Source: an uncultured Acidobacteriota bacterium (GTDB taxonomy: Bacteria > Acidobacteriota > Vicinamibacteria > Vicinamibacterales > UBA2999). From it: 64,000 nt of DNA. The notes beneath the pieces were generated by a model. It ran no database searches. It saw only the letters and a program-made list of their open reading frames with translations, and was not told the origin of the DNA. Shown here one piece after another: positions 4,559 through 62,718 of the stretch (positions are counted from its first letter, which is position 1; every line of letters starts with the position of its first letter). The stretch lies in assembly GCA_963707825.1 (NCBI GenBank), contig CAVPRP010000009.1:154602-218601 (forward strand). The letters are read 5' to 3'. The position numbers and the translations under genes are program-made.

Positions 4559-4561
4559 GGA

Positions 4562-4671: not shown

Positions 4672-6010
4672 GTGGAACCCCCGGCCCGGATTCCCCGCAC
4701 GCTGGGGCTCACCGATCTCGTCCTCCTCGGCACGGTCGCCATCGTCAACGTCAACGTGGTCCCGCCGGTGGGCGGGTTCGGCCGCGCGACGCTTGGCGCT
4801 GTGGCTGCTCGCGTGGCTGGCCTTCTTCGTCCCCGAGGCGATTGCGGTGCTCGCCCTGTCGAAGCGCTATCCCGGCGAGGGCGGGGTCTACCTGTGGGCG
4901 CGCGAGCATTTCGGCGGGCTGCACGGGTTCATCTCCGGCTGGTGCTACTGGACCAACAGCCTGTTCTACGTGCCGGTGCTGCTGGTCTATCTCGCCGGCG
5001 TGCTGGCATTCGCCGGCGGCGATCGCACGGCCGGTCTGGTGGACAATCCCTGGTTCGTCGGCGGCGTCGCCTTCGGCTGGCTGGCACTCATCACCGCGGC
5101 CAACATCCGCGGCATGGGCGTCGGCAAGTGGATCAACAACATCGGCGGCGCGGGCGGCATGGCCACCGTGGTGCTGGTCGCCATCGCCGCCGCGGTCGCG
5201 CGCTGGACCGGCACCGCGACCTCGCCGGTACTGGTGCAGGGCACCGCCTTCGACATGGCCGGCGCGCTCGGCGTGATGTGCTTCGCGTTCATCGGCATCG
5301 AGCTCGCCTCGACGATGTCGGACGAGATCCGGCACCCGGCGCGGGACGTGCCGCGATCGATCGTGATCACCGGCGTGATCGCGCTGGTCGCGTACCTGCT
5401 GGTGGCCGACGCGCTGATCGCGCTGGTGCCTCCGGGCGAGCTCGGCGCCATTCAGGGCGTGATGCAGGCCGTGCAACAGGGCGCTGCTGCCGCCGGCGCC
5501 AGCTGGCTGGTGGCCCCGATTGCGATCGTGATGGCGCTGTCGGTCGGCGGTTCGGCGTCGGCCTGGTTTGCCGGGCCGTCGCGCATTCCGTTCGTCGCCG
5601 GCCTGGATCGCGCGCTGCCGGCCGCGCTGGGGCGGGTGCACCCTCGCTGGGGCTCACCTTACGTGGCGCTGCTGACCTGCGGCGTGATCTCGGCGGCGCT
5701 GACCGCGTTGTCGCTCGCGGGATCGACGGTGGCCGAGGCGTATCAGGTGCTGCTGCGGGCGGCCGTGGTGCTGAACCTGGTGCCGTTCGTCTACGTGTTC
5801 CTGGCCTTGATGACGCTGGATACGGCCCGTGGTTTCGAGCGCGTGGCCGGAGCCGTCGGCGCCGTGGTCACGGCAGCGGGGATCGTCGCGGTGTTCCTGC
5901 CAACCGGTGACGTCGGCAACGTGTGGATCTTCGAGATGAAGATGGCCCTTGGCGTGGGCGTGCCGATCGGCGTCGGGCTGTGGTTGTACTGGCGGGCGCG
6001 GCAGGGGTGA
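4672..6010 (+). pseudogene. APC-family amino acid/polyamine permease; one frame change near 4790
   Basis: The N-terminal segment RTLGLTDLVLLGTVAIVNVNVVPP is in frame 1. The body (ALWLLAWLAFFVPEA..GEGGVYLWAREHFG, multiple TM helices) is in frame 2. One extra G in CTTGG explains the shift. The GTG start at 4672 is tentative. Confidence 0.75.
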
Positions 6011-9705: not shown

Positions 9706-11546
9706 GGGCGCAACCGGCGCGGAAGCCGCCGGCGTCGGCGGCGACTGGCGGGCGACGATCGGCAGCAGCAACCGCGAGGGATGCGCCGCGTCGTGCAGGA
9801 TCGTCTGGGTGGCCGGCACGCCCGCGGGATCCTCGCCGAACACGCCACCGGTATTCAGATTGCGATCGAAGCGCGGAAAGTTGCTGCTCGACACCTCCAG
9901 CCGGATGCGATGCCCGGCGCGGAACAGGTTCGAAGTCGCGCCCAGGTCGATCGTCACCTCGGTCGGCTCGCCCGGCGTCAGCAGCGACGGCGTGGTCTTG
10001 CCGTTGCGATAGCGGGCGCGGAGGATGCCGTCGGCCAGCGCGCGTGCCGTGCCGTCGGGGAACACGTCCACCAGCGTGCCGGTGAAGTCGGTGTCCCGAG
10101 CCGTGGACTGAATCCACAGCGTCAGCGCCAGGGGCCCGGTCACCTCCACGTCTTCCGTCAACGCCGGCGTCTGGTAGACCAGCACGTCCTTGCGCTGTTC
10201 CACCTCGCGCCGATCCATCGGCGTGCGCGAGTAGCCGCCACTGGCGCCGGTCGGCACCGGATCCTTCGGGTCGTAGACGAACTGGTCGGCGGGCTCGCCC
10301 GCCGGCGGCATCGGTTCCAGCCGGCCGTCGCCCGACACCGTCACCGCCCGTCCGGCGCTCCGCAGGTAGAACGGTGTGGTGCGGGCGCGAGCCAACGGCC
10401 ATTCCTGCTCGTCGCGCCACCGGTTCTCGCCCATCACGAACAGGCGGATGGGCGCTGTATCCACCGGCGGCGCGGTCGCCGCCCTTCAACCAGTGGTCGA
10501 ACCAGCCGATCATCGCTTCGTCGGACTCGAAGCCACCGTCGGCGCCGAAGTCGACCTCGCCGATCTTCGTGGACGCGCGGGTCGGGCGCGCGTGGGTCCA
10601 GGGGCCCACCACCAGCCGCTGGTAGCGCCGCGCGGTCTCGTTGGCGGCGTGCTCGCGCAGTCCCGTGAAGTTGCGCAGGGTGCCGGTCAGCAGCGTGTCG
10701 TACCAGCCGGTGAGGTGGAAGGCCGGCACCTCGAAGCGATCGTGCAGGCTCTCGATGTCGCCCGGCGCCCAGTACGCGTCGGCGTCGGGGTGCGACAGCA
10801 TCTGGCGGTAGCCTGGCGCAAAGCGTTCCAGGTCGAACTCGTTGAACGACTTCAGCGGCAGGTGCCACAGCCATGTGGACCGGAGTTGCGCCGACTGGGC
10901 CGGAGCTGAGGCCGATGGGGCCGTCGCGATCGACGGCGGGAGTCAGGACACGCCGGCGGACGTCCATGGCCTGCCCGAGGTTCCAGCCGAGCCCGTCGCT
11001 CAGGTAGAACGCACCGCCCTGGAACACCATGTCGTGACGCCGGCTATAGGACGAGGCGGGAAACAGCGCCACGAGCGCCGGCGGACGCCGGGTGGCGGCC
11101 TCCAACTGAGTGGTGGCGAGATAGCTGCCGCCGAACATCCCCACCTTCCCGTTCACTCCGGGCAGGGCCGCGGCCCACTGCACCGAGTCGTAGCCATCGT
11201 CGGCCTCGTCGTGCGGGACGGCGACCCCGTCGGAGGTATAGCGGCCGCGGGTGTCCTGAACCACGACCACATAGCCACGCGCGGCAATCGCGCTGAACCG
11301 GCGGGCCGCGTCGCGATCGTTCTTCGAATAGGGCGTGCGCTGCAGCAGGGCCGGCCACGAACGGTCCCCAGACGGGCGGTAGACGTCGGCCCGCAGCAGC
11401 ACGCCGTCACGCATGCGACCTGGCACGTTCTTCTCGAGGCGGACGCCGGTCGCCAGGGTCTCCTGACCCGCGCCCCCCGCCGCCAGCCAGCCGGCGGAGG
11501 CCAGCAGCAGGACGACTCCCAGGGAAAGGGTGGCAAACCAGGTCAT
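9706..11546 (-). pseudogene. CocE/NonD-family (X-Pro dipeptidyl-peptidase-like) serine hydrolase; two frame changes (~10895, ~10465) and no stop before the M28 gene
   Basis: Signal peptide MTWFATLSLGVVLLLASAG. Motifs: RTPYSKN, GMFGGSYLA (GxSxG-type nucleophile), HLTGWYD, and the C-terminal beta-sandwich FRAGHRIRLEVSSSNFPRFDRN. The pieces lie in three frames. Confidence 0.75.
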
Positions 11547-11823
11547 CTCTCGGCGGAAGGGATGGGGGGGCATGCGTTTCGGGACGGTAGCCCTCCCATC
11601 GCCCACTGTCAACGACCCACTGGTCCCGGGGATTCAACCCATCACTCCTCCCAATCGCCGACCAGGCGTTCGGAAATGCACGTTGACTCCTGCGACACCC
11701 CGGCCGGATAATTCGCCCATCCGGAAACGGGTCCGTCATACGTGCGTACTGCGTGTGACTGTCCTTGAACGGTGTCGTTGGCGCCAGCGGCTGGCGCTTA
11801 TGTCTTTTCTTGGAGGAAACCCA

Positions 11824-14567
11824 ATGCGGCGTTGCTTAGTTTTTCTATGCACGATCGTCGCGCTCGGAGCCATACCCTGGACCACCTCGGCCCAGCAGAC
11901 GACTGGTAGCATCCGCGGCGTCATCACCGATGAATCGGGCGCCGTCCTGCCCGGTGTCACCGTCACCCTGAAGGGACGCGCCGTCCCCGGCACTCCCACC
12001 ACCGTCAGCAACGAAACCGGCGTCTACCGGTTCCCGAACCTCACACCCGGCACCTACGACATCTCTGCGGAGTTGGCCGGCTTCACGACGACCGCGCAGA
12101 CCGGCATCCCGGTGGCGCTCGGCGGCACGGCCGAAGTCAACGTCCAGATGAAGCTGAGCACCCAGTCCGAGACCATCACGGTGACGGCGGAGTCGCCGGT
12201 GGTGGATGCGACCAGCACCGAAGTGTCCACGAACTACTCGCGTGAGTGGGTCGAGAACGCCCCGGTTCCCCGTTTCTCGTTCTTCGACCTGATCAACGCT
12301 GCACCAGGCGTCAGCGCCGCGACCTCGACGAGCTCGCGGTCGCAGTCGTTCGGGTCGGCGACCAACGAGAACCTCTACCTGATCGACGGCACGGACTTCA
12401 CCGCGCCGCTGAGCGGCGCGGCGTGGCCGTGGCCGAACACCGATGCGATCGAGGAAATCCAGGTGCTGTCGCTGGGCGCGCCCGCCGATTACGGCAACCT
12501 GGGAGGCGCGGTGTTCAACGTGGTGACCCGCCAGGGCAGCAACGCCTTCCATGGCGATGGCAACTTCTACTTCCAGGACCAGAACCTGACCGGTCGGAAC
12601 ACCGACGACGCCATGGACGGTGGCCTGCCCTACAACCGCGACGAGTACAAGGACACCACCTGGCAGCTCGGCGGGCCGGTCGTGCGCGACAAGTTCTGGT
12701 TCTTTGGTTCCTACCAGTACCAGCGCGACTACGCGTCGCAGCCCGGCACCGACCCGACCCAGCCGGCGAAGTTCACCGCGAAGCGCTACTTCTTCAAGTT
12801 GAACTACCAGATCAACCAGGACAACCGGCTGCAGTTCCAGCAGCACGACGACTTCTACCGCATTCCCGGCCGGGCGAGCGCGACCACGGCGCCCAGCACC
12901 ATTTCGGTGGAGAACGGCCACAACCCGTCGCCCGGGTTCCTCTGGTCGTCGGTCCTCAGCCCGACGACGGTGGTCGAGGCCCGTTACTCCGGCTTCTACG
13001 GCGTGGATCACGGCGATCCACTCGACGGTGGCCCACGCGTGGCGCGGCGCTACAACGACCTCGACACCGGCCAGATTACCGGCGGCATCTACTCGTGGTA
13101 CGACGGCAAGAGCCAGAAGACCAGCTTCTCCGGCCGGGTCACCAAGTATGCCGACTCGTTCATGGGCGGCAGCCACGACTTCAAGGTGGGCGTCCAGTAC
13201 AACAGCGGCCTGGGCGAGTACACCTACGGACTGAACGACTACATCTACACCTACGGCTCGACTCCGGCCTACGGCTACACCCAGGTGCCGTACACGCAGG
13301 GCGGCCGCATGAAGGCCATCGGCATCTATGCCGACGACACCTATCAGCTCGGGCGGGCGACCCTGAATCTGGGGCTGCGCTACGACGACAGCAAGGCCTA
13401 CTTCGCGGAGCAGGATATCCTCGATGCGAGCGGCAACCCCACCGGCCAGAAGTCGCGCGCCGTGGACGAGGTCTTCCGGTGGCAGGTGCTGTCGCCCCGC
13501 CTGGGTGTCACCTTCAAGCTGACCGACAGCGGCTCGTCAGCTGGTCAAGGCCCACTACGGCCGCTACTACCGGGGCATCGTGACCGGCGAGTTCGACAAC
13601 ACCACGCCGTCGATCAGCCCGAGGTACACGTTCGACGGCACCTTACAACTCCGCGGGCGTCCCGCAGGGCAAGGAGCTGTTCTCAGACACCTCGCAGCTG
13701 ACCGTGGATCCGGATCTGAAGAACCCCTACACCGACCAGTACATCCTGGCCTGGGAACAGCAGGCTGGCGCGGACGTCGGATTCTCAGTGAGCTACGTCC
13801 ACAAGGAGAGCGAGAGGCAGACCGCGTTCCCCGACATCGGCGGCACTTACCGGCTGGTGCCCTTCACCTCACCGGCGGGCGTCAACATCAGCGAGGTGTA
13901 TCAGCTGACGAGCGGCGCCTCATCGCGCCTGTTCCAGTTGCGGAACGACGACCGGATGCACTCGAAGTACAACGGCGTTGCGTTCGAAGTGAAGAAGCGG
14001 ATGTCACACCGCTGGCAGGCCAACTTCGGCCTCACGCTGTCGAAGTCGGAGGGCCGCCTCGGCTCGAGCTCGGCGCGCTCGACGCCGTTGACCACCCAGA
14101 CCAGCACCGCTGGCATCTTCGGTCAGAATCTGAACGACTTCATCAACAGCGACGGCCGGCTGCAAAGCGATCGCCCAGTCGTCCTGAAAACCCAGTTCGT
14201 CTACCAGATGGGCTGGGGATTGTTGGCCTCGTTCAACTTCCAGAGCCAGAGCGGCAAGCCGATCATCGAAGAGGCCCGCCTCTCGAGCGCCGTCACCGGC
14301 ATCCCCGGCACCAACCGCGCGGTCGCCAATTTCGTGGACGGCGAGCTGCGCACCGACACCTGGACGACCCTGGACGCGCGCCTCGAAAAGGCCTTCAACC
14401 TGGGCGGCTCGAGGGAACTGGCCGCCTTCGGTGACTTCCTGAACCTGTTCAACAGCGACGCCAACGAGAGTGTGCTCGACCGTCGTCCCGGCAACGTGAA
14501 CTACCTCGTGCCATCCCGCTTCATCGCCCCGCGGCGACTGATGCTGGGCGCGAAGATTCGGTTCTAG
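11824..14567 (+). pseudogene. TonB-dependent receptor with N-terminal carboxypeptidase-regulatory-like domain; two frame changes (~13540, ~13645)
   Basis: GGAGGA lies 7 nt before ATG 11824. Signal peptide, then QQTTGSIRGVITDESGAVLPGVTVTL. The C-terminus is ...RLMLGAKIRF (aromatic terminal residue). The frame-2 bridge reads LVKAHYGRYYRGIVTGEFDN. Confidence 0.8.
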
Positions 14568-14571
14568 GACG

Positions 14572-14872
14572 AGAAGGCAAAAGGCAAAAGGCAAAAGGCA
14601 AAAGAACGGCAGACGGCAACCGGCAGTCGGCAGACGTAGAGCCTGAAGCCTGAAGACAGAGACGCCCGGGGTTGCGACATACGCGGCCCCGGGCGATTCT
14701 CTGTACGGAAGGCAAAAAGGAAAAGGCAAAAGGCAGAAGGACCGGCAGCCGGCAGACGGAGGCAGAAGGCACAACGGCGGCCGACAGCTGGCCCTGGCCG
14801 CAAGCCCCAAGACTCAAGACCCAAGACCCAAGACCCAAGACCCAAGCTTCAGCGCAAGCCCCAAGACCTAAG
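14572..14872 (+). repeat. Heptanucleotide tandem-repeat mosaic, locus 2 (two sub-arrays split by a hairpin)
   Basis: AAGGCAA x4, GGCAGAC-type x4, GCCTGAA x2, then a hairpin. After it: AAGGCAA-type x4, CGGCAGC/GGCAGAC, [C/T]CAAGAC x6, and AAGCCCC-type units. Confidence 0.9.
14663..14695. terminator. GC hairpin between convergent genes (possible bidirectional terminator)
   Basis: CGCCCGGGG (14663-14671) pairs with CCCCGGGCG (14687-14695) around a 15-nt loop. It lies between stops at 14567 (+) and 14875 (-). There is no strong T-tract. Confidence 0.45.
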
Positions 14873-14874
14873 CC

Positions 14875-17145
14875 CTACTTGAGCGCCTCCAACTGCTGTC
14901 GTGCGGGCGCGAACTGTGGGTCGATCTCCAGCGCGCGGCGGAAGGCGGTCTCGGCTTCGGCGCGTTTGTTCTGTCGCGCCAGGGCCAGGCCGAGGTTGAA
15001 GGCATACTGCGCGTTCGTGCCGTCGCGCGTGTTGGCTTCACGAAACGCCTGCTCGCCGGCCGCGAGGTCGCCGTTCCCCGCGAGAATCATCCCCAGCGAG
15101 TTCCAGTACGACGCGGTGCCCGGATCGAGCTGCACCGCTTCGCGAAGCAGCCGCGCCGCGTCGGCCGCGCGGCCGAGGTCGCGGTACAGCTCGCCCAGCT
15201 TCACCCGCACCAGTGCATCCTTCGGGGCCAGCTGCGCCACGCGCTCGTAGGCGCGCACGGCGGCGACCGGGTCGTCCATCCGCCGCGCCACGTCGCCTTC
15301 GCGCTCGATCAGCCGCGGGTCATCGGGCGCCACCTTCAAGCCGCGCCGCACCGCCTCGAGCGCCAGGTTCGGCTTGCCATCCGCCAGATGCACTTCGGCC
15401 AGGCCGATGTAGGCGGCGGTGTAGGCCGGCAGCTTCTGCAACGCCCCTTCGTAGTGCGTCGCCGCCTCGCGCCAGCGCTTGAGGCCGACCAGCGCGCGCG
15501 CAGCGTAGTAGTGCGCCTCGAAGCTGTCGATGCCCCTCGCAAACAGCTGCTGGAACCCGGCGTAGCTGGCGGCGAACCGGCCTTCGCGCAGGTTGACCAG
15601 CCCCTCGCGCATCAGCGTGTTGACGATCTGGTACTCCTCGATCTTGTCCTTCGGATCGGCGCCGGACGCACGAGATGCCGCCGGTCCGGACGAACTGACG
15701 TAACCAAGCGCGCCCAGCTTCTCGAGCAGATCGGCGGGGACCGAGGCGGCGGCCGGCCCGGTGTCGCGCAGCAGGGCCTGCTCTTCACGGAGGCGCTGCT
15801 CGATGCCCGATCGATACGCGCGGGCGCGTTGCGGCTCCTTGTCGATCAGGTTCTGCCGCTCGTGGGGGTCCTGTCCCAGGTCGTACAACTCCGGACGCGG
15901 CGCGAGGATGTACTTCCATTGGCCGTCGCGGACCGCGCGCAGGTCGCTCCATCCGTAATGGACCAGCGGCACCAGCGACTCGGCAAACGTCGGCTCCTCG
16001 TCCTGCGGCGTGCCACGTAGCGCCCCGGCCAGCGATCGACCGGACACCTTCGGCGTCTTCGCCGCCAGCCCGAGCAGGTCGAGCACGGTCGGCATGACGT
16101 CAACGTTGCGCGTCACCGCCTTCAGCCTGGTGCCGGGCCTAATCCCGGGCCCGCGCATCAGCAGCGGCACGGCGAGCGTGGACTCGTAGACGAAGAAGCC
16201 GTGCACCGCTTCCTTGTGCTCGTCGAGGCCCTCGCCGTGATCGGACGTGACGATGAGGAGCGTGTCGTCGCGAAGCTTTGCCGACGCCAGGGCCGCGTCG
16301 AGCCGGCCCACCAGTTCGTCGGACCACGCCACTTCCCCGTCGTAGGGACGTCCGGCGTACTTCGTCGCGTATGGCTCCGGCGGTTCGTAGGGATCGTGCG
16401 GATCGTATAGATGGACCCACGCAAACCGCCGGTCCGCACCCGCGGCACCCAGCCACGCCGTCGCCTCCGCCACCGTGGCGTCGCCGCGCTTCTGAATCGT
16501 GTTGAGGAAGCGGGCATCGTCCTCGCCGATGTCGAACTTGTCCGAGTAGTCGGCGAACCCGCGCGCCAGCCCGGACTGCCGCGACAGGACGATCGACGAG
16601 ACGAACGCCGCGGTCTTGAACCCGTTCTGCTGGAGGATCTCCGCCAGCACCGGCACCTTGCCGCCGAGCGGCGGCGAGACGTTGTCACGAATGCCATGCT
16701 CGGCCGGATAGAGCCCGGTGAAGAGCGAAATGTGGGACGGCCGCGTCAGCGGCACGTGCACCGAAGCGTGTTCGGCCATCGCGCCTTCCGAGGCCAGGCG
16801 ATCCAGGTTCGGCGTCGCGACCGTCGTGTTGCCATAGACGCCGAGACGATCGGCCCGCAGCGTGTCGATGGTGACGATCACCACGTGCTTCGGCACGCGA
16901 GCCGCGGCGGGCGGGCCGGACGGCGCCGACGAGCCGCACGCGGCGACGCTCAGGAGGACAGCCACCACCGCGGCCGCAAGCAGGGGGACGCGGCTGGCGG
17001 CTCGGCTTGCGTCTTGAGTCTTGGGTCTTGGGTCTTGGGGCTGTGCCGGCTGCCGGCTGCCGGCTGCCGTTTTGCCTTCTGCCTTGTGCCTTTTGCCTTC
17101 TGTCTTCCGTCTGCCGTCTGCCGCCTGCCGTCTGCCGATACTCAC
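14875..17145 (-). CDS. Sulfatase-fold (alkaline-phosphatase superfamily) + TPR lipoprotein, paralog 1
   Basis: Motifs: IDTLRADRLGVYG, VPLTRPSHISLFTGLYPAEHGIRDN, SDHGEGLDEHKE, lipobox LLSVAAC, and a C-terminal TPR-like region. The only canonical start upstream of the lipobox is GTG 17145 (GTGA overlap with the upstream stop). That start would translate repeat locus 3. The alternative is CTG ~16983. Confidence 0.8.
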   Translation of the reverse strand: MSIGRRQAADGRRKTEGKRHKAEGKTAAGSRQPAQPQDPRPKTQDASRAASRVPLLAAAVVAVLLSVAACGSSAPSGPPAAARVPKHVVIVTIDTLRADRLGVYGNTTVATPNLDRLASEGAMAEHASVHVPLTRPSHISLFTGLYPAEHGIRDNVSPPLGGKVPVLAEILQQNGFKTAAFVSSIVLSRQSGLARGFADYSDKFDIGEDDARFLNTIQKRGDATVAEATAWLGAAGADRRFAWVHLYDPHDPYEPPEPYATKYAGRPYDGEVAWSDELVGRLDAALASAKLRDDTLLIVTSDHGEGLDEHKEAVHGFFVYESTLAVPLLMRGPGIRPGTRLKAVTRNVDVMPTVLDLLGLAAKTPKVSGRSLAGALRGTPQDEEPTFAESLVPLVHYGWSDLRAVRDGQWKYILAPRPELYDLGQDPHERQNLIDKEPQRARAYRSGIEQRLREEQALLRDTGPAAASVPADLLEKLGALGYVSSSGPAASRASGADPKDKIEEYQIVNTLMREGLVNLREGRFAASYAGFQQLFARGIDSFEAHYYAARALVGLKRWREAATHYEGALQKLPAYTAAYIGLAEVHLADGKPNLALEAVRRGLKVAPDDPRLIEREGDVARRMDDPVAAVRAYERVAQLAPKDALVRVKLGELYRDLGRAADAARLLREAVQLDPGTASYWNSLGMILAGNGDLAAGEQAFREANTRDGTNAQYAFNLGLALARQNKRAEAETAFRRALEIDPQFAPARQQLEALK
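17008..17138 (-). repeat. Heptanucleotide tandem-repeat mosaic, locus 3 (inverted relative to locus 2)
   Basis: Plus strand reads GTCTTG[A/G] x4, GGCTGCC x3, TTGCCTT-type x5 and GTCTGCC-type x4. These are the reverse complements of CCAAGAC, GGCAGCC, AAGGCAA and GGCAGAC. Confidence 0.9.
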
Positions 17146-48547: not shown

Positions 48548-50425
48548 TCAGCGCAGCTGCGCGGCGCGCCCCTTGAGCGTCTCGGCCATCGCGCGCATGC
48601 GCGACTGATCGCGCCCGGTGGCAGTCGCCGCGTCGCGCTCGAGCTCACCGGCCAGGGTCACCAGTTCGGCCGCGGCCGGGGCCGCGCCGCGGTCGCTGCT
48701 GCGAATGCGATCGGCGCGGTCCAGCGTCGACGAAATGGCGCTCGCCCGGGCGTCCGGGATCGCCTTGCTGCGCTTCAGCTGATCGAGATAGGCGCGGGCC
48801 ACGACCACCGACGAAGGCCAGGTGACCTTCGGCTGCTGCTGCGAGTTGAACTCCTCCCACCGCACCAGCGCCGCGGCGTCGAGCTCGTTCTGCGACAGGT
48901 ACTGGCTCGGCAGCAGGCGGAAGATGTCGATGCCGCGGGCAATCTCGGCGCCGTAGAGGAAGCCGTTGTAGTAGTAGGTGGACCAGTAGCCGCCCGACAT
49001 CAGGTTGGCAGCGTCCACCGGTCCGCGATCGAAGATACGCGATCTCAACCGGGTTCGCCGAATCGGTGAAGTCGAAGATCGACACGCCGCCCTGGTACCA
49101 CGACTGCACCATGATGTCGCGCCCCGGCACCGGAATCAGCGAGCCGTTGTGCGCGACGCAGTTCTCCTGGTCGGTCTGCGGCGCCGGCATCTTGTAGTAG
49201 CCCTTGAACTGCAGCTTCTTGTCGACGATGTCGAAGATCGCGTCGGCGCCCCAGGTGATGGGATCGGTGGCGCGGCAGCGCGGCCGCGCGCCGCCGCCCC
49301 ACTCGTCGGTGAACACCACCTTGGTGCCGTCGTTGTTGAACGTCGCCGAGTGCCAGTACGCAGAAGCCCTTGTCGACGACGTGGTCGAGCCGCTTCGGGT
49401 TCATCGGGTCGGAGATGTCCATCAGCAGGCCGTTGCCCGAGCAGGCGCCGGCGGCAAGGCCGATGGTCGGGTAGACCGTGATGTCGTGGCACTGGTTGGT
49501 CATGCGCGAGGTCTGCGTGCCCTCGCCGTGGTTGCCGCCCTGCCACAGGCCCGCGAGGTTACCGGTCTTCTCGTCCATGAAGATGCGGGGACGGTTGACG
49601 ATCTTCGCGTTCTGGGGCGCGCCGAGCGGCACCTCGATCACGTCGATGCTGAAGAGCGCGGTGTTCGGATCCTCTTTCGGGTCGAGGCCCGAGCAGCCCT
49701 CGAGCTCCTCGCCCGGACGCACCGAGCTGGTGCCGGACCCATAGACGAACAGGTGCGACGGGTTCTTCGGATCGGGCACCAGCGTGTGGGTGTGCGAGCC
49801 GCGGCACGTCTGCACGGCCGCCACCTGGCGCGGCTTGCGGAGGTCGCTGATGTCGAAGATGCGGACGCCGCGGAAGCGATCCTTGCTGACCGTCTCGGTC
49901 ACGCCCTGCAGGCCGCAGTCGAGGCGCCCGCGCGTCTGTTCCACCGACATGAACAGCAGGTTGCCCCACACCGAGACGTCACCCTGCCCGCCGGGGCAGA
50001 CGATCGAGGTCATCAGGCGCGGTTTGCGGACGTTCTCGACGTCGTAGATGTTGAAGCCGTGATAGTTGCCGACCACCACGTGAGTGCCGAAGAAGGCGAG
50101 GTCGGAGTTCGTGAAGCCCGAGCCGCGCGGCGGCGGAGGGGGCGGCGTGCCTGGCTCCGGCGTGGGCTCGGGGGGCGCGCCCGGCGCGCGCTCGGGCGGC
50201 GTCGGCGACCCGGCCGGGGCTTCCGGATCGAAGAACCCCTCGGGCTTCGGCATGTTCGCCAGCAACTCCATGTTCATGCGCCGCAGTGCCCGCGTCGCGG
50301 AGCCCGGCCTTGAGGCCGATGCGGGGATCCTTGGGGTTCGGCGGCGCCTGCTGGGCGCTCGTCAATCCGACGACCGAGGCCACACCCACACTGATCGCAA
50401 AGATGGTGAAACGGTTGAGCTTCAT
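48548..50425 (-). pseudogene. LVIVD-repeat beta-propeller protein, paralog A; three frame changes (~50280, ~49362, ~49036)
   Basis: AGGAGA RBS and ATG 50425 (MKLNRFTIFAISVGVASVVGLTSAQQ). Collinear with the intact paralog at 57640-59583, for example GGQGDVSVWGNLLFMSVEQTRGR and FKGYYKMPAPQTDQENCVAHNGSLIP. Confidence 0.75.
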
Positions 50426-50467
50426 CGATCGGTCTCCTGAAACGAGTCGGGCGGATTGTACTCTGGT

Positions 50468-50674
50468 GGGCTTGAGGCTTGGGGCTTGGGGCTTGGGGCT
50501 TGGGGCTTGGGGCTTAGGACGTCTTGGGGCTTGGGGTCTTGGGTCTTGGGTCTTGGGTCTTGCGGTCTCCGGCTCCGGTCCCCGTCTGCCGTCTGCCGTG
50601 CTCTGCCTTTTGCCTTTTGCCTTTTGCCATCTGCCATCGGGTACCGGATCCCGGATACCGGATGCCGGATCCCG
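50468..50674 (-). repeat. Heptanucleotide tandem-repeat mosaic, locus 4 (about seven unit types)
   Basis: Plus strand reads GGCTTGG x7, GGTCTTG x4, CGGTCTC/CGGCTCC, GTCTGCC x2, CTTTTGC x3, CATCTGC x2 and CCGGAT[CAG] x4. Confidence 0.9.
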
Positions 50675-50675
50675 G

Positions 50676-51335
50676 TCAGTAGGTTTTTCCCCGCTGCCTT
50701 GCGATGTCGAACTTCGCGGTGTCGGCAATCGCCATCACCGCCATGACGCCGGCCTGCAGCGGGTCGGTGACGACCAGGTCTGCGGCTTCGCGCACGCTGC
50801 CGACCATGTTCAGCGAGATGACGAGCAGCCCCTGCCGCCGGATTTCGCGCACCGCCTCGGCGATCTCGCCGCCCATGATCGCGCCGGCCAGCACCAGGAT
50901 CTTCGCGCGCGGCAGGCGGGCCACCGCATGGACCGCCGCGGCCAGGGCCTGTTCGCCCACCAGCGGAATCGTGTCCACCGAGATCCGCTCGCCGCGGATG
51001 TTGTGCCGATCGGCTTCGCTGATCGCGCCCACCGCCACCTGCCCCACCTGCGCGCCACCGCCGATGATGATCACGCGCTTGCCGTAGATGGACAGCAGCG
51101 ACGGCTCGAGCGTCACCCGGTGCACCAGCGGCAGCGCGGTGAGGTCGCGCACCAGCGCCCCGAGATCGGCGCCGTCGCCGACCTCGATGGTCATCGTGGC
51201 GCGGCCGCCGGCAGCCGTCAGCGTCTGGATGCCCGAGATGTTCGCGTCGTGCGCGGCGAACACCGCCGCCACTCGCGACAGCACGCCGGGCACATCGTCG
51301 GCTTCGAGCAGCAGCGTGCGCGCCGGATCGGGCAT
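50676..51335 (-). CDS. ACT-domain protein with a C-terminal glycine-rich Rossmann-like domain, function unknown
   Basis: Start trimmed to ATG 51335 (MPDPARTLLLEADDVPGVLSRVAAVFAAHDANISG = ACT). C-terminal GKRVIIIGGGAQVGQVAVGA...LVLAGAIMGGEI. Confidence 0.6.
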   Translation of the reverse strand: MPDPARTLLLEADDVPGVLSRVAAVFAAHDANISGIQTLTAAGGRATMTIEVGDGADLGALVRDLTALPLVHRVTLEPSLLSIYGKRVIIIGGGAQVGQVAVGAISEADRHNIRGERISVDTIPLVGEQALAAAVHAVARLPRAKILVLAGAIMGGEIAEAVREIRRQGLLVISLNMVGSVREAADLVVTDPLQAGVMAVMAIADTAKFDIARQRGKTY

Positions 51336-57639: not shown

Positions 57640-59583
57640 CTAACGAAGCCGGGCGGCCCGGGCCTTGAGTGTGTCGGCGAGCGCCTTCAGACGCATCTGA
57701 TCGCGGCCCGACGCCGCAGCGGCGTCGGTCTCCAGCTGCGTCGCCAGGGTGCCGAGTTGATCGGCCGCGGCGCTGGCGCCGCGATCTTTCGGCGAGCGCA
57801 TCTGCTCGGCCCGGTCCATGGCCGTGACTACGGCCGCCGCCCGCTCCGGCAGGATACCCCTGGTGCGATTGAGCTGATCGACGTAGGCCTTGGCCACGAC
57901 CGCAGTCGCCGGCCAGGTCACCTTGGGCTGCTGCTGCGGATTGAACTCCTCGTGCCGCACGAGCATCGCGGCGTCGATCTCGTTCTGCGACAGGTAGTTG
58001 CTCGGCAGCAGGCGGAAGATGTCGATGCCGCGCGCGATTTCCGAGGCGTAGATGTTGCCGTTGTACCAGTAGGTGGACCAGTAACCGCCGGTGATGAGGT
58101 CCTTGGCGTCGAGCGGACCGCGGTCGAAGAACGCCACTTCGACCGGCGTGGCCGAGTCGGTGAAGTCGAACACCGACAGGCCGCCCTGATACCAGCCCTG
58201 CACCATGAGGTCGCGGCCCGGGATCGGAATCAGCGAGCCGTTGTGCGCCACGCAGTTCTCCTGGTCGGTCTGCGGCGCGGGCATCTTGTAGTAGCCCTTG
58301 AACTGCAGCTTCTTGTCGACGATGTCGAAGATCGCGTCAGCGCCCCAGTTCGGCAGGTCGGTCGCGCGGCAGCGCGGCCGCGTGCCACCGCCCCACTCGT
58401 CGGTGAAGATCACCTTGGTGCCATCGTTGTTGAACGTGGCCGAGTGCCAGTAGGCGAAGTTCTTGTCGTTCACCGCATCGAGCCGCTTGGGCTCCACCGG
58501 GTTCGAGATGTCCATCAGGATGCCGTTGCCCGAGCACGCGCCCGCGGCCAGCCCCACTTCGGGGAACACCGTGATGTCGTGGCACTGGTTGGTCCGGCTG
58601 GTGCTTTGCGTGCCGGGGCCGTGATCGCCGCCTTTCCAGAGTCCGGCGATGTTCCCGGTCTCGTCGGCGAAGATGCGCGGCCGGCTGATGATCTTCGCGG
58701 TCTGCGGCGCGGCGATCGGCACTTCGATCACGTCGATGCTGAAGAGGGCGGTGTTGCCGTCCTTCTCCGGCTCCTCGCCCGAGCAGCCGTCGAGCTCTTC
58801 ACCCGACCGCACCGAGCCGGTGCCCGAGCCGTAGATGTAGATCCGCGACTTGTCGTTCTTGTCCGGCACCAGCGTGTGGGTGTGCGAGCCGCGGCAGGTC
58901 TGGACCGCCGCCACCTGGCGGGGCTTGCGCATGTCGCTGATGTCGAAGATGCGGACGCCGCGGAAGCGTTCCTTGCTCACGGTGTCGCCGACGCCCTGCA
59001 CGCCGCAATCGATGCGGCCGCGGGTCTGCTCCACCGACATGAACAGCAGGTTGCCCCACACCGAGACGTCACCCTGCCCGCCGGGGCAGACCACCGAGGC
59101 AATCAGCTGCGGCTTCTTCGGGTTCTCGACGTCGTAGGTATTGAAGCCATGGAAGTTGCCGACCCACATGTGGGTGCCGGCAAACGCCATGTCGGAGTTC
59201 GCGAAGTCGAGACCGCCGGGCCCGCGAGGCGGCGCCGGCTTCGCGCCATCGGCCGAAGCGACGGGCGCGCCAGGCGCCGCGGTGGCAGCGGGAGCCGCCG
59301 GTGCGGCCGGTGCCGCGTCGGCGGCCGGCGGCGGCGTCCCCGGTGCCCGCTCGGGCGAGGACGGGTCGCCGGCGGGCTTCTTCGGATCGAAGAACCCATC
59401 GGGACGCGGCATCGTCGCCGTCAATTCCATGTTGCGCGCGGCCGTACCCGCATCTCGCAGCCCCGGCTTGAGGCCTATCCGCGGATCCTTGGGATCGGCC
59501 GGCGCCTGTTGCGCCGCTCCCACCAGCACCACACCGCCCAGCAGGGCGGCGACAGTCCACACGCGTGTCGTCACAGACTTCAT
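57640..59583 (-). CDS. LVIVD-repeat beta-propeller protein, paralog B (intact)
   Basis: ATG 59583 overlaps the DUF305 stop (ATGA). Signal peptide MKSVTTRVWTVAALLGGVVLVGAAQQ. Pro/Ala-rich linker, propeller blocks, and a helical C-terminal tail. Confidence 0.8.
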   Translation of the reverse strand: MKSVTTRVWTVAALLGGVVLVGAAQQAPADPKDPRIGLKPGLRDAGTAARNMELTATMPRPDGFFDPKKPAGDPSSPERAPGTPPPAADAAPAAPAAPAATAAPGAPVASADGAKPAPPRGPGGLDFANSDMAFAGTHMWVGNFHGFNTYDVENPKKPQLIASVVCPGGQGDVSVWGNLLFMSVEQTRGRIDCGVQGVGDTVSKERFRGVRIFDISDMRKPRQVAAVQTCRGSHTHTLVPDKNDKSRIYIYGSGTGSVRSGEELDGCSGEEPEKDGNTALFSIDVIEVPIAAPQTAKIISRPRIFADETGNIAGLWKGGDHGPGTQSTSRTNQCHDITVFPEVGLAAGACSGNGILMDISNPVEPKRLDAVNDKNFAYWHSATFNNDGTKVIFTDEWGGGTRPRCRATDLPNWGADAIFDIVDKKLQFKGYYKMPAPQTDQENCVAHNGSLIPIPGRDLMVQGWYQGGLSVFDFTDSATPVEVAFFDRGPLDAKDLITGGYWSTYWYNGNIYASEIARGIDIFRLLPSNYLSQNEIDAAMLVRHEEFNPQQQPKVTWPATAVVAKAYVDQLNRTRGILPERAAAVVTAMDRAEQMRSPKDRGASAAADQLGTLATQLETDAAAASGRDQMRLKALADTLKARAARLR

Positions 59584-60266
59584 TTCAGCTCCTTCAGCAA
59601 CGCACCCATCCGATCGATCTCCATCTGCTGATCGGCTTCGACGTCCGACGCGAACGCGAAGATATCGCTGTCCTGCCCCGCTCCGGGCGAGGCGAACAGA
59701 TCCCGCACCATCGTCAGCGCGCCGCCGTGGTGCCGGATCATGCCTTCCAGGAACAGCCGATCGAACTGCACGCCGTGAGCGGCGGTCAGCTGCTCCATCT
59801 GCTCCGGTGACAGCATCCCCGGCATCAGCACGGCGTCGTGCTGGTGATGCGCGTGGGGGTCCGGCAGCGTCTGGCCGCGCGACTTCAGCCACACCTGCAT
59901 CATCTGGATTTCATCGAGCTGCGAGACCTCGATGCGCTTGGCCAGCAACTTCATGTCGTCGCGGCTCGTGCGGGTCGGCAGCAGCGCGGCCATCTCGATG
60001 GCCTGCTGGTGGTGCCCGATCATGCCCTGCATGAACTTGACGTCGGCGGGCGTGAACTGGACCTTGGAGAGGTCGGTGGAGTCGGCCACGCTCATCGTGC
60101 GTCCGTCCTGCCCGGGCGCGCCCGGCTGAATCAGTCCGGGGCTGCCGGCGGCAGGGCTCGATGGCGTGGCGGGTGCCGCGCCGGCCACGGGGCTGGCGCT
60201 GCGACAGGCGGCGCCTGCGGCCACGAGCAGGCAAAGGGCCGTGATGCGAAGAATATGGGTCGGCAT
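59580..60266 (-). CDS. DUF305-family (ferritin-like, metal-resistance-associated) lipoprotein
   Basis: Lipobox LLVAAGAAC. Duplicated motif FMQGMIGHHQQAIEMA / FLEGMIRHHGGALTMV. Confidence 0.85.
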   Translation of the reverse strand: MPTHILRITALCLLVAAGAACRSASPVAGAAPATPSSPAAGSPGLIQPGAPGQDGRTMSVADSTDLSKVQFTPADVKFMQGMIGHHQQAIEMAALLPTRTSRDDMKLLAKRIEVSQLDEIQMMQVWLKSRGQTLPDPHAHHQHDAVLMPGMLSPEQMEQLTAAHGVQFDRLFLEGMIRHHGGALTMVRDLFASPGAGQDSDIFAFASDVEADQQMEIDRMGALLKELK

Positions 60267-60269
60267 CGG

Positions 60270-60292
60270 TACTCTACAGAGTATCGCGATAC
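60270..60292. promoter_or_regulatory. Two overlapping perfect palindromes 4 nt upstream of the DUF305 start codon
   Basis: TACTCTACAGAGTA (60270-60283) and GTATCGCGATAC (60281-60292). This is a locally AT-rich patch in a GC-rich context. Confidence 0.3.
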
Positions 60293-60380
60293 GGGCGGCC
60301 CTGGGCAGCCCCTTGCTCGGCCGGTCGCCGCGCGTCCACCGCCCTGGGGTGAGCGGTGGGACGCGCGCGATTCCGAGTGC

Positions 60381-61289
60381 CTAGAGGCCGGGGCCGGGAG
60401 GGGTGCGCCCGCCGCGCGGCTGCGGCGGGTTCTTGAGCAGGCGGTACTGGCTGATGCCCGCATTCACCTTGAATTCGATGCCCATGCGCCCAATCTCGGC
60501 GGTCGCCCTGGACGGATCGCCGGTGACGCCCGAGTCCTTGGCGCCGCCCCACGGCAGGATCTGCGCCTTGCGCACGCCGGCCGGGTAGACGTGAAGCATC
60601 TGCGAGGTGTCGCTGATCCCCGCATGGCTGCCGACGACGTCATCGTCGTATCCGAAGGCGGCCATCAGCCACGCCCGGTAGTTGTCGCGGCCGACGTTGT
60701 AGTAGTCGGTCAGGCCATAGACCCTGGTGCCGGCCTGGGCCCACTCCTCGTTCAGCTTGGCGGCCACTGCCGTCATCCCGGCCTGGTTGCCGCCGCTGTC
60801 GCCGATGAACAGGATCTCGGTGAAGCCGTGCGCCTTGAGGCTCCGCGCCGCGGCGTCGAGCAGCATGTCGTAGGCCGGCGACGGCAGGGTGATCGCGCCC
60901 TGGTTCTGGCGATCGGGATCACCCTCGGGCACGTACTGGATGACCGGCGCCACCAGCGCGTTTCCCAACCGGCGCGCCATCACGTTGGCGGCGTGAGTGA
61001 CGACGTAATTGTGCTTGCCGAGAACCATGTGGTACCCGTTCTTCTCGGTACCTCCGGTGGGGATGATGACCGTGGTCTTCCCCGCCTTCAGCGCGTCGCG
61101 CGTTTCTTCCCACGTCAGTTCGTCGATGAAGACGGTGTCAGGAGCGTGCGTCGGCGTCTTGCTCGCCGGAGCGGTCTCCACGGTGGGACGGCGTGGGCCT
61201 GCTGGCGGCGCTGGACGTGGGCCGCGGGCGCCACCGCCGGCCCCGGCGGGAGGGGCGGGCAACGGCCGGCACGGGCGGCTCGGCGCCAC
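60381..61289 (-). CDS. Creatininase-family amidohydrolase, paralog 1
   Basis: Motifs: ELTWEETRDALKAGKTTVIIPTGGTEKNGYHM, ILFIGDSGGNQ, and GSHAGISDTSQML. The start is uncertain (GTG 61289 or GTG ~61186). No signal peptide is visible. Confidence 0.75.
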   Translation of the reverse strand: MAPSRPCRPLPAPPAGAGGGARGPRPAPPAGPRRPTVETAPASKTPTHAPDTVFIDELTWEETRDALKAGKTTVIIPTGGTEKNGYHMVLGKHNYVVTHAANVMARRLGNALVAPVIQYVPEGDPDRQNQGAITLPSPAYDMLLDAAARSLKAHGFTEILFIGDSGGNQAGMTAVAAKLNEEWAQAGTRVYGLTDYYNVGRDNYRAWLMAAFGYDDDVVGSHAGISDTSQMLHVYPAGVRKAQILPWGGAKDSGVTGDPSRATAEIGRMGIEFKVNAGISQYRLLKNPPQPRGGRTPPGPGL

Positions 61290-62125
61290 TCAGCATCCGC
61301 TTGTACTGCGCCAGCGCCAGGTCCATCTTGATCTGCAGGAGCTGGCGGCCGATCTCGGGCGAAGACTTCGCCTGGTTGTTGCCGCTGACGCCGTTGTTCT
61401 CGTAGTCGTTGCCGACGAGTCGATCGCGGCGGATGTGCTGCGGCGCCACGAACAGCAACTCGGAGGTGTCGAGGATGTTGGCGTGGTTGCCCACCTGGGC
61501 CTCGGGCACGCCGAGGAACCTTCGCCGCCATCACTTCCTGATCGTGATGCGCCTTGGTGTAGTAGTCGTCCACCCAGTAGGCGGTGGCGCTGCCCTTCCA
61601 CAGGGTGTTCAGCTGCTCGGCCGCGGTGCGCATGCCGGTGCGGTTGCCGCCCGATTCACCCAGGAACACGACCTTGGTGAAGCCGCCGGCCTTGAGGCTG
61701 CGCCCGGCGTTGACCAGCAGATCGACAAAGCGTTCTTCGGGGAGTGTGATCGTGCCGGGCTTCCCCATGTGGCCGCCCACCGTCTCCCAGCTGCCCTCCG
61801 GCACATAGGTGACGACCGGCGCGACCAGCGTGCGGCCCATGCCGCGGGCAATCTTGTCGGCGGTGTAGGTCATGACGAACTTGTGCTCGCCATCGACCAT
61901 GTGCGGTCCCTTCTGTTCGGTGCCCGCGGTGCCGATGATGACAGTGGTCCACCCGTCCTTGATCAGGTCGCGGGTCTCGGCCCAGGTGAGCTCTTCGAGC
62001 ATCACGGTGTCGGGCGGTTTGCCGGAGGGCGCGGTGGCGGGCGCATCGGCGGGACGCTGCGCGGCCACGGTCATCGTGGTCAACAGGCAGGCGCCGAGAA
62101 AAGCTGACGGGACGCGGTAATTCAT
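61138..62125 (-). pseudogene. Creatininase-family amidohydrolase, paralog 2 (secreted); one frame change near 61524
   Basis: GGAGA RBS and ATG 62125. Signal peptide MNYRVPSAFLGACLLTTMTVAAQ. Motifs: ELTWAETRDLIKDGWTTVIIGTAGTEQKGPHM, VVFLGESGGNR, and after the shift FLGVPEAQVGNHANILDTSELLF. The 3' end is ambiguous. Confidence 0.7.
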
Positions 62126-62173
62126 GGGCAAGTCTCCGGATTTGACCCGACAAGAGTACACGAAGGGAGGGGA

Positions 62174-62274
62174 ACCGGCAGACGGCAACCGGCAGACGGC
62201 AGACGGCAGACGGCAGACGGGAGACGGGAGACGGGAGTCGGGAGTCGGGAGTCGGGAGTCGGGAGTCGGGAGAC
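62174..62274 (+). repeat. Heptanucleotide tandem-repeat mosaic, locus 5 (GGCAGAC x5, GGGAGAC x2-3, GGGAGTC x5)
   Basis: Direct reading: ccggcagac ggcaacc ggcagac x4, gggagac x2, gggagtc x5, gggagac. Confidence 0.9.
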
Positions 62275-62303
62275 CTTTTATCGGCAGCGCGGTCGTCTGG
62301 TTG

Positions 62304-62718
62304 CTAGGACGAGGGCGTGACGAGCACGATCTCGTCAACGACGATGGACCAGAGCAGGCCCGAGGAGCTCACCATCAAGTTGTACTGACGCGGGATCGTC
62401 CTCGAAGTTGAACGTGCCTTCGCCGACGCCGCGTTGGTCAACGACTTCCTGCAACGGGCGGCCGCTGACCGCGCTGTGCACGGTGAGATGGAACACGCCG
62501 TCGGGCCGACCCGGCTCGGGACGCGTTGCCCAGCGGATGCGGAACTTGCCGGAGTTGCTGACGAATCCAATGGTGTGATCGCCGCTGCCTTCCCACGCGC
62601 CGACCTGCTGCGGAATGCCGATCGGCGCGCGTGGCGGCGTCGTGGATCGACGACAGTCAACCCCGAGGGCGACTAAAGTCGCGACCGAGACGTACCACCA
62701 CAACTTTCGACGCGTCAT
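62304..62718 (-). pseudogene. Small hypothetical lipoprotein; one frame change near 62400
   Basis: ATG 62718 (MTRRKLWWYVSVATLVALGVDC, lipobox). The body reads ...GVFHLTVHSAVSG...GEGTFNFEDDP. The tail RQYNLMVSSSGLLWSIVVDEIVLVTPSS* is in a second frame. Confidence 0.45.

Follow-up and report, generated by a model that had tools for sequence, protein, structure and literature searches.

A compound heptanucleotide repeat array between two genes of an uncultured Vicinamibacterales-like acidobacterium, and its relatives

The heptamer array at 50468–50674

The DNA analysed here (the window) is a stretch of 64,000 nucleotides (64 kb) from contig CAVPRP010000009.1 of an uncultured soil Acidobacteriota bacterium, and our subject is one of the repeat loci in it, A4, a 207-nt mosaic of heptamers at 50468–50674 that lies in the intergenic gap between two minus-strand genes and is read here on the minus strand. 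A4 belongs to a lineage-specific family of arrays in this Vicinamibacterales-like genome. The upstream gene (50676–51335, minus strand) codes for a 219-residue ACT and DUF5612 protein whose close homologues carry PF01842, PF13291, PF22629 and PF18462; its stop codon, TGA, occupies 50678–50676, which agrees with the stop at 50676 given in the original prediction, a reading of this DNA made from the sequence alone. The downstream gene (48714–50425, minus strand) codes for a secreted protein that begins MKLNRF.

The self-identity of A4 at a lag of seven nucleotides was 0.76, compared with 0.30 ± 0.03 (maximum 0.41) in 2000 shuffled sequences, and at lags of 14 and 21 it was 0.63 and 0.53. Tandem Repeats Finder (TRF) called four period-7 arrays inside 50468–50675, with scores of up to 119: 13 copies of GGGCTTG (50468–50562), CCGTCTG (50582–50599), TGCCTTT (50604–50628; period 7, 100% match) and CCGGATC (50644–50675). 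Scanning the whole window for periods of 5, 6, 8 and 9 gave no tract at the threshold used for period 7. TRF, the lag-7 identity and the gene boundaries together confirmed the prediction of an array of several unit types that occupies the intergenic gap, and the predicted list of units proved correct, as TRF and direct reading of the minus strand agreed; the CCGGAG unit in it is a 6-mer.

On the minus strand, the array opens 5 nt past the stop codon of the ACT gene with block T, four units of the form ATCCGG[C/T/G/T] (50643–50670). Two GGCAGAT units, a variant of the D type, follow (50625–50638), then block K, with three AAGGCAA units and one AAGGCAG (50601–50624, within the TRF call at 50604–50628), and block D, two GGCAGAC units preceded by a junction, AGAGCAC, that is kept in the orthologues (50582–50600). 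The transition from the G-rich to the C-rich half is made by two CCGGAG units (50563–50579), which are not present in the orthologues, where CCTAGAA-type units occupy that place. The C-rich half consists of block P, four CCAAGAC units (complement GGGTCTT; 50535–50562), and block Q, seven to eight CCCAAGC-type units (complement GGGGCTT; 50468–50534) with one irregular unit, GACGTCCTAAGC, inside it; a G-quadruplex (G4) motif lies on the plus strand of each, at 50526–50550 and 50481–50505, respectively. For comparison between loci, units were assigned to the families T (ATCCGGN), D (GGCAGAC type), K (AAGGCAA/G), E (GGGAGAC/T), R (CCTAGAA type), P (CCAAGAC) and Q (CCCAAGC), and A4 tokenised in this way reads T5 D2 K4 D3 E1 P4 Q2 P1 Q7. 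Tandem units of 5–11 nt, far above chance, characterise the long simple sequence repeats (SSRs) of prokaryotes, and A4 is a heptanucleotide array of that description. CRISPR loci, repetitive extragenic palindromes and miniature inverted-repeat transposable elements do not describe it, as its units are contiguous, non-palindromic and strand-asymmetric, and shared flanks between arrays were not found.

Directly downstream of the array is a −10-like element, GAGTACAAT (50455–50463, minus strand), in which the hexamer TACAAT occupies 50460–50455, and the Shine–Dalgarno sequence of the downstream gene, AGGAGA, is at 50433–50438 (minus strand), the order 3′ of block Q being CCACCAGAGTACAATCCGCCCGACTCGTTTC, AGGAGA, ACCGATCG and ATG. 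From the end of A4 the distance is 7 nt to TACAAT, 29 nt to AGGAGA and 42 nt to the ATG (50425), so the gap of about 40 nt originally given between the array and the ribosome-binding site (RBS) is too long for the RBS and fits the start codon. An alignment of 10 complete orthologous loci, two of them without an array, showed GTA[C/G]AAT, GGAGA and ATGAA to be invariant. This conservation suggests that TACAAT is the −10 box of a promoter; a two-hexamer sigma-70 scan of the region gave no full promoter. Since the conserved TACAAT separates the array from the RBS, A4 probably lies upstream of the transcription start rather than in the 5′ untranslated region. The prediction that it belongs to the 5′ region of the downstream gene is to be qualified accordingly.

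The orthologous site in related genomes

The comparison set consisted of nine orthologous arrays besides that of the window (W) and two orthologous loci without an array (L118 and L204). The gene order around the site is kept, with a DUF1028 gene, a small open reading frame (ORF), the ACT/DUF5612 gene and the gene for the secreted protein MKLNR…. The ACT protein of the window is identical to P0122 on ERZ25039510 contig_7961 (= CAVRPA010000020.1, MFD03066.bin.2.161), and as the two differ in DNA, with an identity of only 94.5%, the window represents a sister strain or species.

The three loci whose flanks extend over several kb (L205, L208 and L210) are 94–95% identical to the window in DNA and have ACT proteins that are identical or differ in 1–2 residues; their arrays are about 290 nt long and read T4 D1 K4 D7 R4 P/Q 13, T5 K5 D5 R/P… Q8 and D6 K5 D4 R3 Q8, respectively. 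The arrays of L206 and L207 (identical ACT protein, 94% DNA identity) read T5 K3 D4 E1 K1 R… and are both incomplete, the contig of L207 stopping inside the array. In L209, whose ACT protein differs in one residue, the array is about 115 nt long (D5 P/Q 10), and in L202 (ACT protein 98% identical) it reads D5 Q13 up to the point where the contig stops inside it. More distant arrays read T3 D4 K7 D5 R9 Q2 (L203, ACT protein 95%) and T5 D4 Q4 (L119, 93%). At an ACT protein identity of 87–89% and a DNA identity of about 87% (L118 and L204) the array is absent, and a gap of 40–66 nt retains GAGAGTACAAT…AGGAGAC…ATG; it is likewise absent at 79% (L122), and at 76% (L120/L121) there is a small octamer array (CACCCCTG; L120 6680–6730). 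Over the nine arrayed loci the intergenic length ranges from about 115 to about 290 nt, a copy-number polymorphism like that of long SSRs, and with the array-less L118 and L204 included the ACT proteins are 87–100% identical. Because the proximal element is invariant even where there is no array, the array can be regarded as a fast-evolving insertion between the stop codon and the −10-like box, and A4 appears to fill dispensable DNA between the stop codon and the fixed TACAAT, AGGAGA and ATG signals.

The orthologous arrays also show where the changes occur. A junction landmark, AAGGCAGA(A/G)CACGGCAGAC, is common to W, L205, L206, L207, L208 and L210, and the copy numbers adjacent to it differ; among strains of about 95% DNA identity the blocks also follow one another in an unchanged order. 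The end blocks T and Q are the best conserved, internal K, R and P blocks have been gained or lost, and copy number varies in every block. Block T has its counterpart at the orthologous site, as three to five (A/G)TCCGGT units, in L205–L208, L203 and L119, and the ATCCGGN type was found in relatives down to about 85–88% DNA identity; the CCCAAGC type is present in eight of the nine orthologous arrays, the ninth (L206) breaking off inside a CCTAGAA-type block. The modular growth at the array ends that had been suggested for A4 is thus contradicted by these nine arrays, in which the ends are most conserved and the internal blocks vary. Growth at the ends only was also rejected as a general candidate, being at odds with the in-register gradients described below, the conserved junctions and the copy changes in every block. 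Block gradients and fixed junctions point instead to units that mutate in place, with slippage all along the array.

Two more distant relatives have repeats of their own near this site. L130, which is 59% identical, has a pair of heptamer arrays just downstream of the ACT orthologue, and in L120 the end of the downstream gene is followed by a separate AAGGCAA/AAGGCAG heptamer array (8638–8683). The occurrence of a K-type unit in L120, a 76% relative, implies that this unit is older than the split of the close clade of the window from L120.

Many genes in the window contain frameshifts, and the contigs of L202 and L207 stop inside the array, both of which might be taken to indicate an artefact of assembly or sequencing. 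The chance that this accounts for the array is negligible, as nine or more assemblies made independently of one another (JGI/ENA contigs from short reads, metagenome-assembled genomes (MAGs) from long reads), from different samples and technologies, have arrays at the A4 site with consistent flanks, and only single-base details of the units are uncertain. The downstream gene has at least four frameshifts relative to the intact 571-residue orthologue in L205 (tblastn, frames −1/−2/−3/−1/−3), and the outer-membrane receptor gene (11530–14567, split at 13701/13704) and one creatininase paralog (61115–62125) also seem to be frameshifted. Probably the window was assembled from long reads and contains indel errors, the alternative being that several of its genes are pseudogenes; given the frameshifts, units that are irregular by a single base (6- and 8-mers) may reflect errors in the consensus.

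Sister arrays, block order and neighbouring genes

The window holds five mosaic loci, A1–A5, all of period 7. Each lies between ORFs that are supported by their codon bias (G+C content at third positions), so these arrays share the non-coding location of long SSRs, and the genes beside them are ordinary ones (an FAD oxidoreductase, an amino-acid permease, an outer-membrane barrel, two sulfatase-TPR and two creatininase-family proteins). A1 (4560–4646, plus strand) runs between the stop codon of the FAD oxidoreductase gene at 4558 and the GTG of the permease gene at 4664 and consists of five GGCAGAC-type and six CCAAGAC units (D5 P6). A2 (14570–14886, plus strand) lies between convergent genes and has the order K-D-AGCCTGA, a hairpin (14664–14697) and K-D-K-Q-P-Q, its two parts reading K5 D4 (A2a) and K3 D3 K2 Q2 P6 Q2 (A2b); its G-rich strand begins at the TAG that closes the sulfatase gene on the minus strand. 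A3 (17006–17137, minus strand) lies between the two sulfatase-TPR genes and reads D5 K4 D4 Q1 P4. A5 (62173–62274, plus strand) consists of seven CGGCAGA units followed by nine CGGGAGA/CGGGAGT units (D7 E9), and its C-rich complement precedes a creatininase-family gene on the minus strand (ATG 62125) by about 45 nt.

When the T-poor strand of these arrays was read 5′ to 3′, purine-rich blocks with G≥C (K, D and E) always came ahead of the C-rich blocks P and Q. Among the five non-orthologous arrays, 49 pairs of blocks were concordant in order and 2 discordant, a result that permutation of blocks within arrays matched in 0 of 20,000 trials, so the shared block order is real, and the predicted agreement of A4 with the arrays at 14570–14886 and 17006–17137 was upheld. 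The polarity on the T-poor strand was the same in all five arrays; random flipping of whole arrays gave P = 0.06, and the shared polarity is accordingly suggestive. A sixth locus, L010, was concordant in both respects. The CCCAAGC unit, which had been regarded as an additional type of A4, is found at 14801–14886 and in L117 as well. Boundaries between blocks are in-register gradients of one or two substitutions, for example CGGCAGA > CGGAAGA > CAGAAGG > CAAAAGG in A3, and such graded boundaries are what in-place mutation and local amplification would be expected to produce.

Two other accounts of the order were considered and rejected. A cause linked to the replication strand does not fit, as the T-poor strand alternates between plus and minus within the 64 kb. 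A ‘stratigraphy’ made by templated addition at an end would need one common terminal unit, and A1 ends in P and A5 in E; further, A2a and L117a/c are without P or Q, and the orthologues of A4 vary most in the middle.

The block grammar is a property of the lineage of the window. The K/D→P order was confined to that lineage among the loci compared, and loci with the same repeat vocabulary belonged to Vicinamibacterales and other Acidobacteriota MAGs. The 64 kb of the window contain 8 blocks of period 7, compared with 2 in 423 kb of control Acidobacteriota loci, which were metagenome matches to the ACT protein, mostly of about 60% identity, that had not been selected for repeats. In L212, at the site orthologous to A3, the whole mosaic is duplicated in tandem (D5 K4 D3 P4 | K4 D5 K3 D2 Q P4). 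This duplication, the same vocabulary and 5′→3′ order at six non-orthologous loci and the same units in L120 would be compatible with dispersed copies of one mosaic, spread by gene conversion, ectopic recombination or an unrecognised mobile element. We consider such an origin improbable, because outside the arrays there are no common flanks, terminal repeats or target-site duplications, the junction sequences are specific to each locus and no transposase gene is adjacent; dispersal would in any case complement slippage and not supplant it.

The hairpin in A2 (CCCGGGG…CCCCGGG) is kept in three genomes (14664–14697; L211 ~5360–5400; L212 ~5310–5350), between heptamer arrays that differ in the three, and is probably a real terminator of the convergent genes. 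At A3, a reading frame is open through the array region (16990–17145, minus strand) from GTG 17145, in a GTGA overlap with the upstream stop codon, to the hydrophobic core and lipobox of the downstream sulfatase-TPR lipoprotein (…RVPLLAAAVVAVLLSVAAC). No further in-frame start codon (ATG, GTG or TTG) precedes that core; the only other starts are a GTG GTG pair (V60–V61) inside the core, where the database gene call P0154 begins, and these would leave an 11-residue signal peptide with an uncharged N-terminus. The layout is the same and in frame in L211 (3001–3200; 87% orthologue, protein P0159, MRTGRRQ…), and in L212 (2576–2960; 96% orthologue) there is a TTGA overlap, out of frame; orthologues of the gene at 82% identity or less have ordinary short signal peptides. 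The frame is thus kept in two of three genomes, a count that is not significant and is confounded by long-read indels. With this layout, ribosomes may read through A3 as an expendable stretch of the signal peptide, or the array may serve to switch the frame in 7-nt steps. Arrays in general are nearly stop-free (0–6 stops per array on both strands), and spurious long ORFs cross them, for example at 49979–50728, 61115–62338 and 14875–17145 on the minus strand.

The gene downstream of A4 had been labelled an LVIVD paralog, a name for which we found no Pfam support: neither the protein, its intact orthologue nor its paralog in the window matched a Pfam family even at E ≤ 5, PF08309 (LVIVD) included, and the sole match of the downstream protein was to TIGR04312 (choice_anch_B), at 43–45 bits and so below the cut-off of 100. 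The paralog, at 57838–59583, is intact and 71% identical in amino-acid sequence; a stretch resembling DUF305 (MQGMIGHHQQAIEMA), with no Pfam match, precedes it. In relatives (the L120 and L205 neighbourhoods), HMA, cupredoxin, P-type ATPase and multicopper-oxidase genes are located near this paralog, which suggests a copper-related neighbourhood around 57640–60266. The 64 kb contain just two copies of AGAGTACA (0.16 expected), at 50457–50464 on the minus strand and 62153–62160 on the plus strand, each of them next to a heptamer array (A4 and A5, respectively). Three start codons, 50425, 62125 and 60266, are preceded at about 30–40 nt by a TACAAT or TACTCT hexamer (for the last, in the 60285–60300 region), and these hexamers may be the −10 boxes of the lineage.

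Origin, possible roles and known heptamer repeats

To see how widely one of the units is used, an exact search for (CCAAGAC)x3 was made with one genome per species; as this single unit was scanned, the search does not bear on whether CCAAGAC is favoured over other units. It returned at least 117 loci, in Acidobacteriota, Planctomycetota, Verrucomicrobiota, Bacteroidota (Kordia, 34% GC), Omnitrophota, one archaeal MAG and others; all counts of CCAAGAC arrays given below are among the matches listed, which were mostly short arrays with graded variant units. Other arrays met as bystanders in the 1.37 Mb of sequence fetched numbered 37 of period 7 and, for the remaining periods between 4 and 12 taken together, 19, and they were strongly asymmetric between the strands (A+C versus G+T). 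Inverted pairs of heptamer arrays were seen at L016 (2944–3035), L020 (2705–2836), L089 (4097–4201) and L130 (866–975), and such pairs could fold into long imperfect intergenic hairpins.

The position of CCAAGAC arrays relative to genes was biased in two ways. The C-rich 3′ end was the one nearer to the next ORF in 45 arrays and the other end in 18 of the 63 arrays scored (p = 9e-4), the median distances, taken from whole-array boundaries, being 49 and 129 nt; where a stop codon lay within 10 nt, the G-rich strand was sense in 16 arrays and antisense in 4 (p = 0.012). Proximity to start codons was asymmetric as well (9 versus 0 within 30 nt), a figure that is given no weight because it is probably inflated by crude start calling, the T-poor strand being free of start codons. 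Orientation as such, relative to the flanking genes, was unbiased in 116 CCAAGAC arrays (35:26 and 30:35), and among close relatives with co-directional genes the array was sense in three cases and antisense in two.

The strand of A4 that is sense to both flanking genes contains 5% T, compared with 15.7% expected (P = 3e-6), and the predicted minimum free energy (MFE) of its RNA is −57.9 kcal/mol, compared with −92.3 ± 10.3 in the background. The sense-strand RNA of A1–A4, and the minus strand of A5, which is the strand sense to the adjacent gene, fall among the least structured 0–2% of background windows. On the minus strand the P/Q block of A4 reaches a C/G ratio of 3.7 over 78 nt, the maximum for either strand of the 64 kb, and the gene-sense strand of A5 comes second (3.0). 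The C/G ratio of 3.7 and low structure of A4 correspond to the sequence pattern of a Rho utilisation (rut) site, and the C-rich tract might act in RNA as a loading site for Rho, stopping read-through ahead of the next promoter, or, at A1 and A3, where no promoter intervenes, as an unstructured leader or standby site between cistrons. All four arrays of the window that lie beside a gene start have the C-rich strand as sense, and no intrinsic terminator was found on either strand between 50200 and 50900; Rfam gave no family at its gathering score, the only hit being RT-13, outside the array (20 bits against 69.1, E = 0.5). We nevertheless consider an RNA element of this kind a doubtful explanation. 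The lack of orientation bias among the 116 CCAAGAC arrays argues against a general strand-specific role in RNA, as do the mixed orientations in close relatives, at stop codons it is the G-rich strand that is more often sense, and with a −10-like box between A4 and the RBS the array is probably outside the downstream mRNA. The notion of a genetically inert spacer (neither strand having stops, ATG or TAnnnT) was rejected, as its counts were indistinguishable from high-GC background: A4 has 3 stops against 6.4 expected (background fraction at or below this, 0.10) and 0 TAnnnT against 0.3, and GTG/TTG are enriched.

The G-rich strand offers a different candidate role. Rehm et al. (2015; PMC4692102) proposed a G4 reading for the GGGNATC and GGGGA(C/T)T heptamers of Xanthomonas and Nostoc and described a rule by which the G-rich strand is antisense where the repeat lies upstream of an ORF at no more than 50 bp, and sense where it directly follows a stop codon. 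In the 64 kb, five of the seven canonical (G3+N1-7)x4 motifs are inside heptamer arrays, two of them in A4 and antisense to the downstream gene. The P/Q half of A4 has the run of at least four units with a tract of three or more Gs that is a feature of this class, and with the G-rich strand antisense and 42 nt from the ATG it obeys their rule of position. The same rule is recovered for CCAAGAC arrays across phyla, and the G-rich strand of A2b is sense from the stop codon on in three genomes. The antisense (GGGGCTT)7/(GGGTCTT)4 tract may fold as a G4, with an i-motif on the C-rich strand, and to modulate the promoter or block read-through. This we regard as possible but unlikely: tracts of three or more Gs are found in the 3′ half of A4 only, the T, D and K blocks having GG at most, A1 and A3 hold just three G-tracts, relatives at 87% without an array retain the promoter-like box and the RBS, copy number is not near the four units for which Rehm et al. 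reported a preference, and even these authors could not demonstrate a regulatory role.

A third possibility is a platform for protein, in which each 7-nt unit would be occupied by a monomer that binds single-stranded nucleic acid, for instance a cold-shock-domain protein, so that a protein filament would assemble on the DNA or RNA. CspB of Bacillus subtilis binds one heptanucleotide per monomer with the consensus GTCTTTG/T, preferring T2, C3 and T4 (PMC1904285), and on the A-poor strand the units GTCTTGG and GCCTTTT match this consensus in six of seven positions, while GTCTGCC and GTCTCCC share GTCT; MacGregor raised the same idea of binding for TAACTGA repeats (PMC4679880). Some likeness to CspB sites is to be expected, however, for any heptamer rich in pyrimidine and G, the CspB-like strand is antisense to both flanking genes, and the unit types are too diverse for a single specific binder, so a putative platform of this sort seems very improbable.

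On balance, we think it probable that A4 is a compound heptanucleotide microsatellite driven by slippage, hypermutable and largely neutral as a spacer, whose polarity is limited by what is tolerated near the starts and stops of genes. The comparison of loci shows units that come and go in 7-nt steps all along the array, new types that derive from a neighbouring unit by point mutation and are amplified in place, giving in-register block gradients, and the deletion or duplication of whole blocks and even whole mosaics. The mechanism would presumably be slipped-strand mispairing together with unequal or ectopic recombination between repeats. As pictured here, the array would encode no product and would space the ACT stop codon some 215 bp from the −10-like box, compared with 24–36 bp in array-less relatives. 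The sense strand would thereby gain a tract that is C-rich, G-poor, almost free of U and poor in structure, and the antisense strand would gain (GGGGCTT)n/(GGGTCTT)n G4 motifs directly upstream of the −10 box. A modest effect of the array on read-through or promoter activity is possible, and A4 appears to be largely dispensable.

Several results weigh against this explanation. The composition of A4 is non-random, as its T content shows, and its sense-strand RNA is predicted to be far less structured than the background. Both position biases of the CCAAGAC arrays, that of the C-rich end and that at stop codons, hint at constraint. The same vocabulary and polarity were found at six of six non-orthologous loci, a recurrence that independent slippage alone does not explain and that calls for either copying from one array to another or a constraint common to them. 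Finally, unrelated small arrays occupy the same site in distant relatives (an octamer in L120 and a heptamer in L130), and this recurrence could mean that the site at the ACT gene favours or uses repeats.

The mosaics might also be other than neutral, as a lineage-wide polar ‘punctuation’ serving as bidirectional insulators of transcription, with a block order that would come from function or active copying and not from chance. The G-run side would face incoming gene ends, and the C-rich side, free of start codons and structure, would face gene starts; at A3 there could in addition be a 7-nt frameshift switch, the translated part being discarded with the signal peptide. We hold this notion to be rather unlikely. 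If the polarity is functional, the arrays would provide an accessible model of insulation between neighbouring bacterial genes.

The slippage explanation that we prefer is of interest for other reasons. The A4 site presents a graded series, from no array through a short one to 290-nt mosaics, within about 5–13% divergence and with fixed junctions. Being nearly stop-free, arrays of this sort mislead ORF finders, and they break short-read contigs, which makes them a gene-call trap in MAGs of soil Acidobacteriota. Intergenic heptamer repeats are the commonest long microsatellites of bacteria.

Among known systems, the phase-variation SSRs resemble A4 in that they are prone to slippage, vary in copy number between strains and can have a unit length that is not a multiple of 3. 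Unlike them, A4 is neither in an ORF nor between a −35 and a −10 element; since the repeat itself fills the −35 position, resizing the array leaves the local sequence and spacing unchanged. Its sister A3 may differ in this respect. The STRR heptamers of cyanobacteria are a related kind of intergenic repeat.

The closest likeness in general features is to the prokaryotic long SSRs (LSSRs) of Mrázek, Guo and Shah (2007). As far as that work is represented in PMC4679880 and PMC4692102, heptanucleotides are the commonest LSSR class, with a bias to non-coding DNA, length variation between close relatives and a proposed origin by slippage; for the period of 7, these two papers offer a polymerase-footprint hypothesis only. 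The arrays of the window share the tandem 7-nt units, the non-coding location, the lineage-specific abundance and the length variation, and differ from that account in linking units of several types with a constant polarity and in their host, an uncultured member of the Acidobacteriota. Text searches of the literature found no description of heptamer repeats of this sort in Acidobacteriota.

With the repeats of Rehm et al. (2015) the P/Q half of A4 has in common one tract of three or four Gs per 7-nt unit, an intergenic location and obedience to the rule of position and strand, and inverted pairs able to form hairpins also occur here (in L016, L020, L089 and L130). The units GGGTCTT and GGGGCTT are different, GGGNATC and GGGGA(C/T)T being absent from A4, there is no preference for four units, the T/D/K half is without G3 tracts, and the G4s here are putative; the rule itself gains independent support from a different unit (CCAAGAC/GGGTCTT) across many phyla. 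MacGregor (2015; PMC4679880) described TAACTGA repeats and mixed assemblages of heptamers in Beggiatoaceae, Cyanobacteria and Bacteroidetes, and these resemble the present arrays as intergenic direct heptamers of mixed types, often just upstream of starts and in ‘forward’ orientation, with contigs that end inside them; the TAACTGA sets have 2–6 copies and contain stop codons, whereas the arrays of the window are nearly free of T and built from other units. A4 is therefore one more example of a class already known, the heptamer repeats found between bacterial genes, to which it adds a lineage-wide block grammar.

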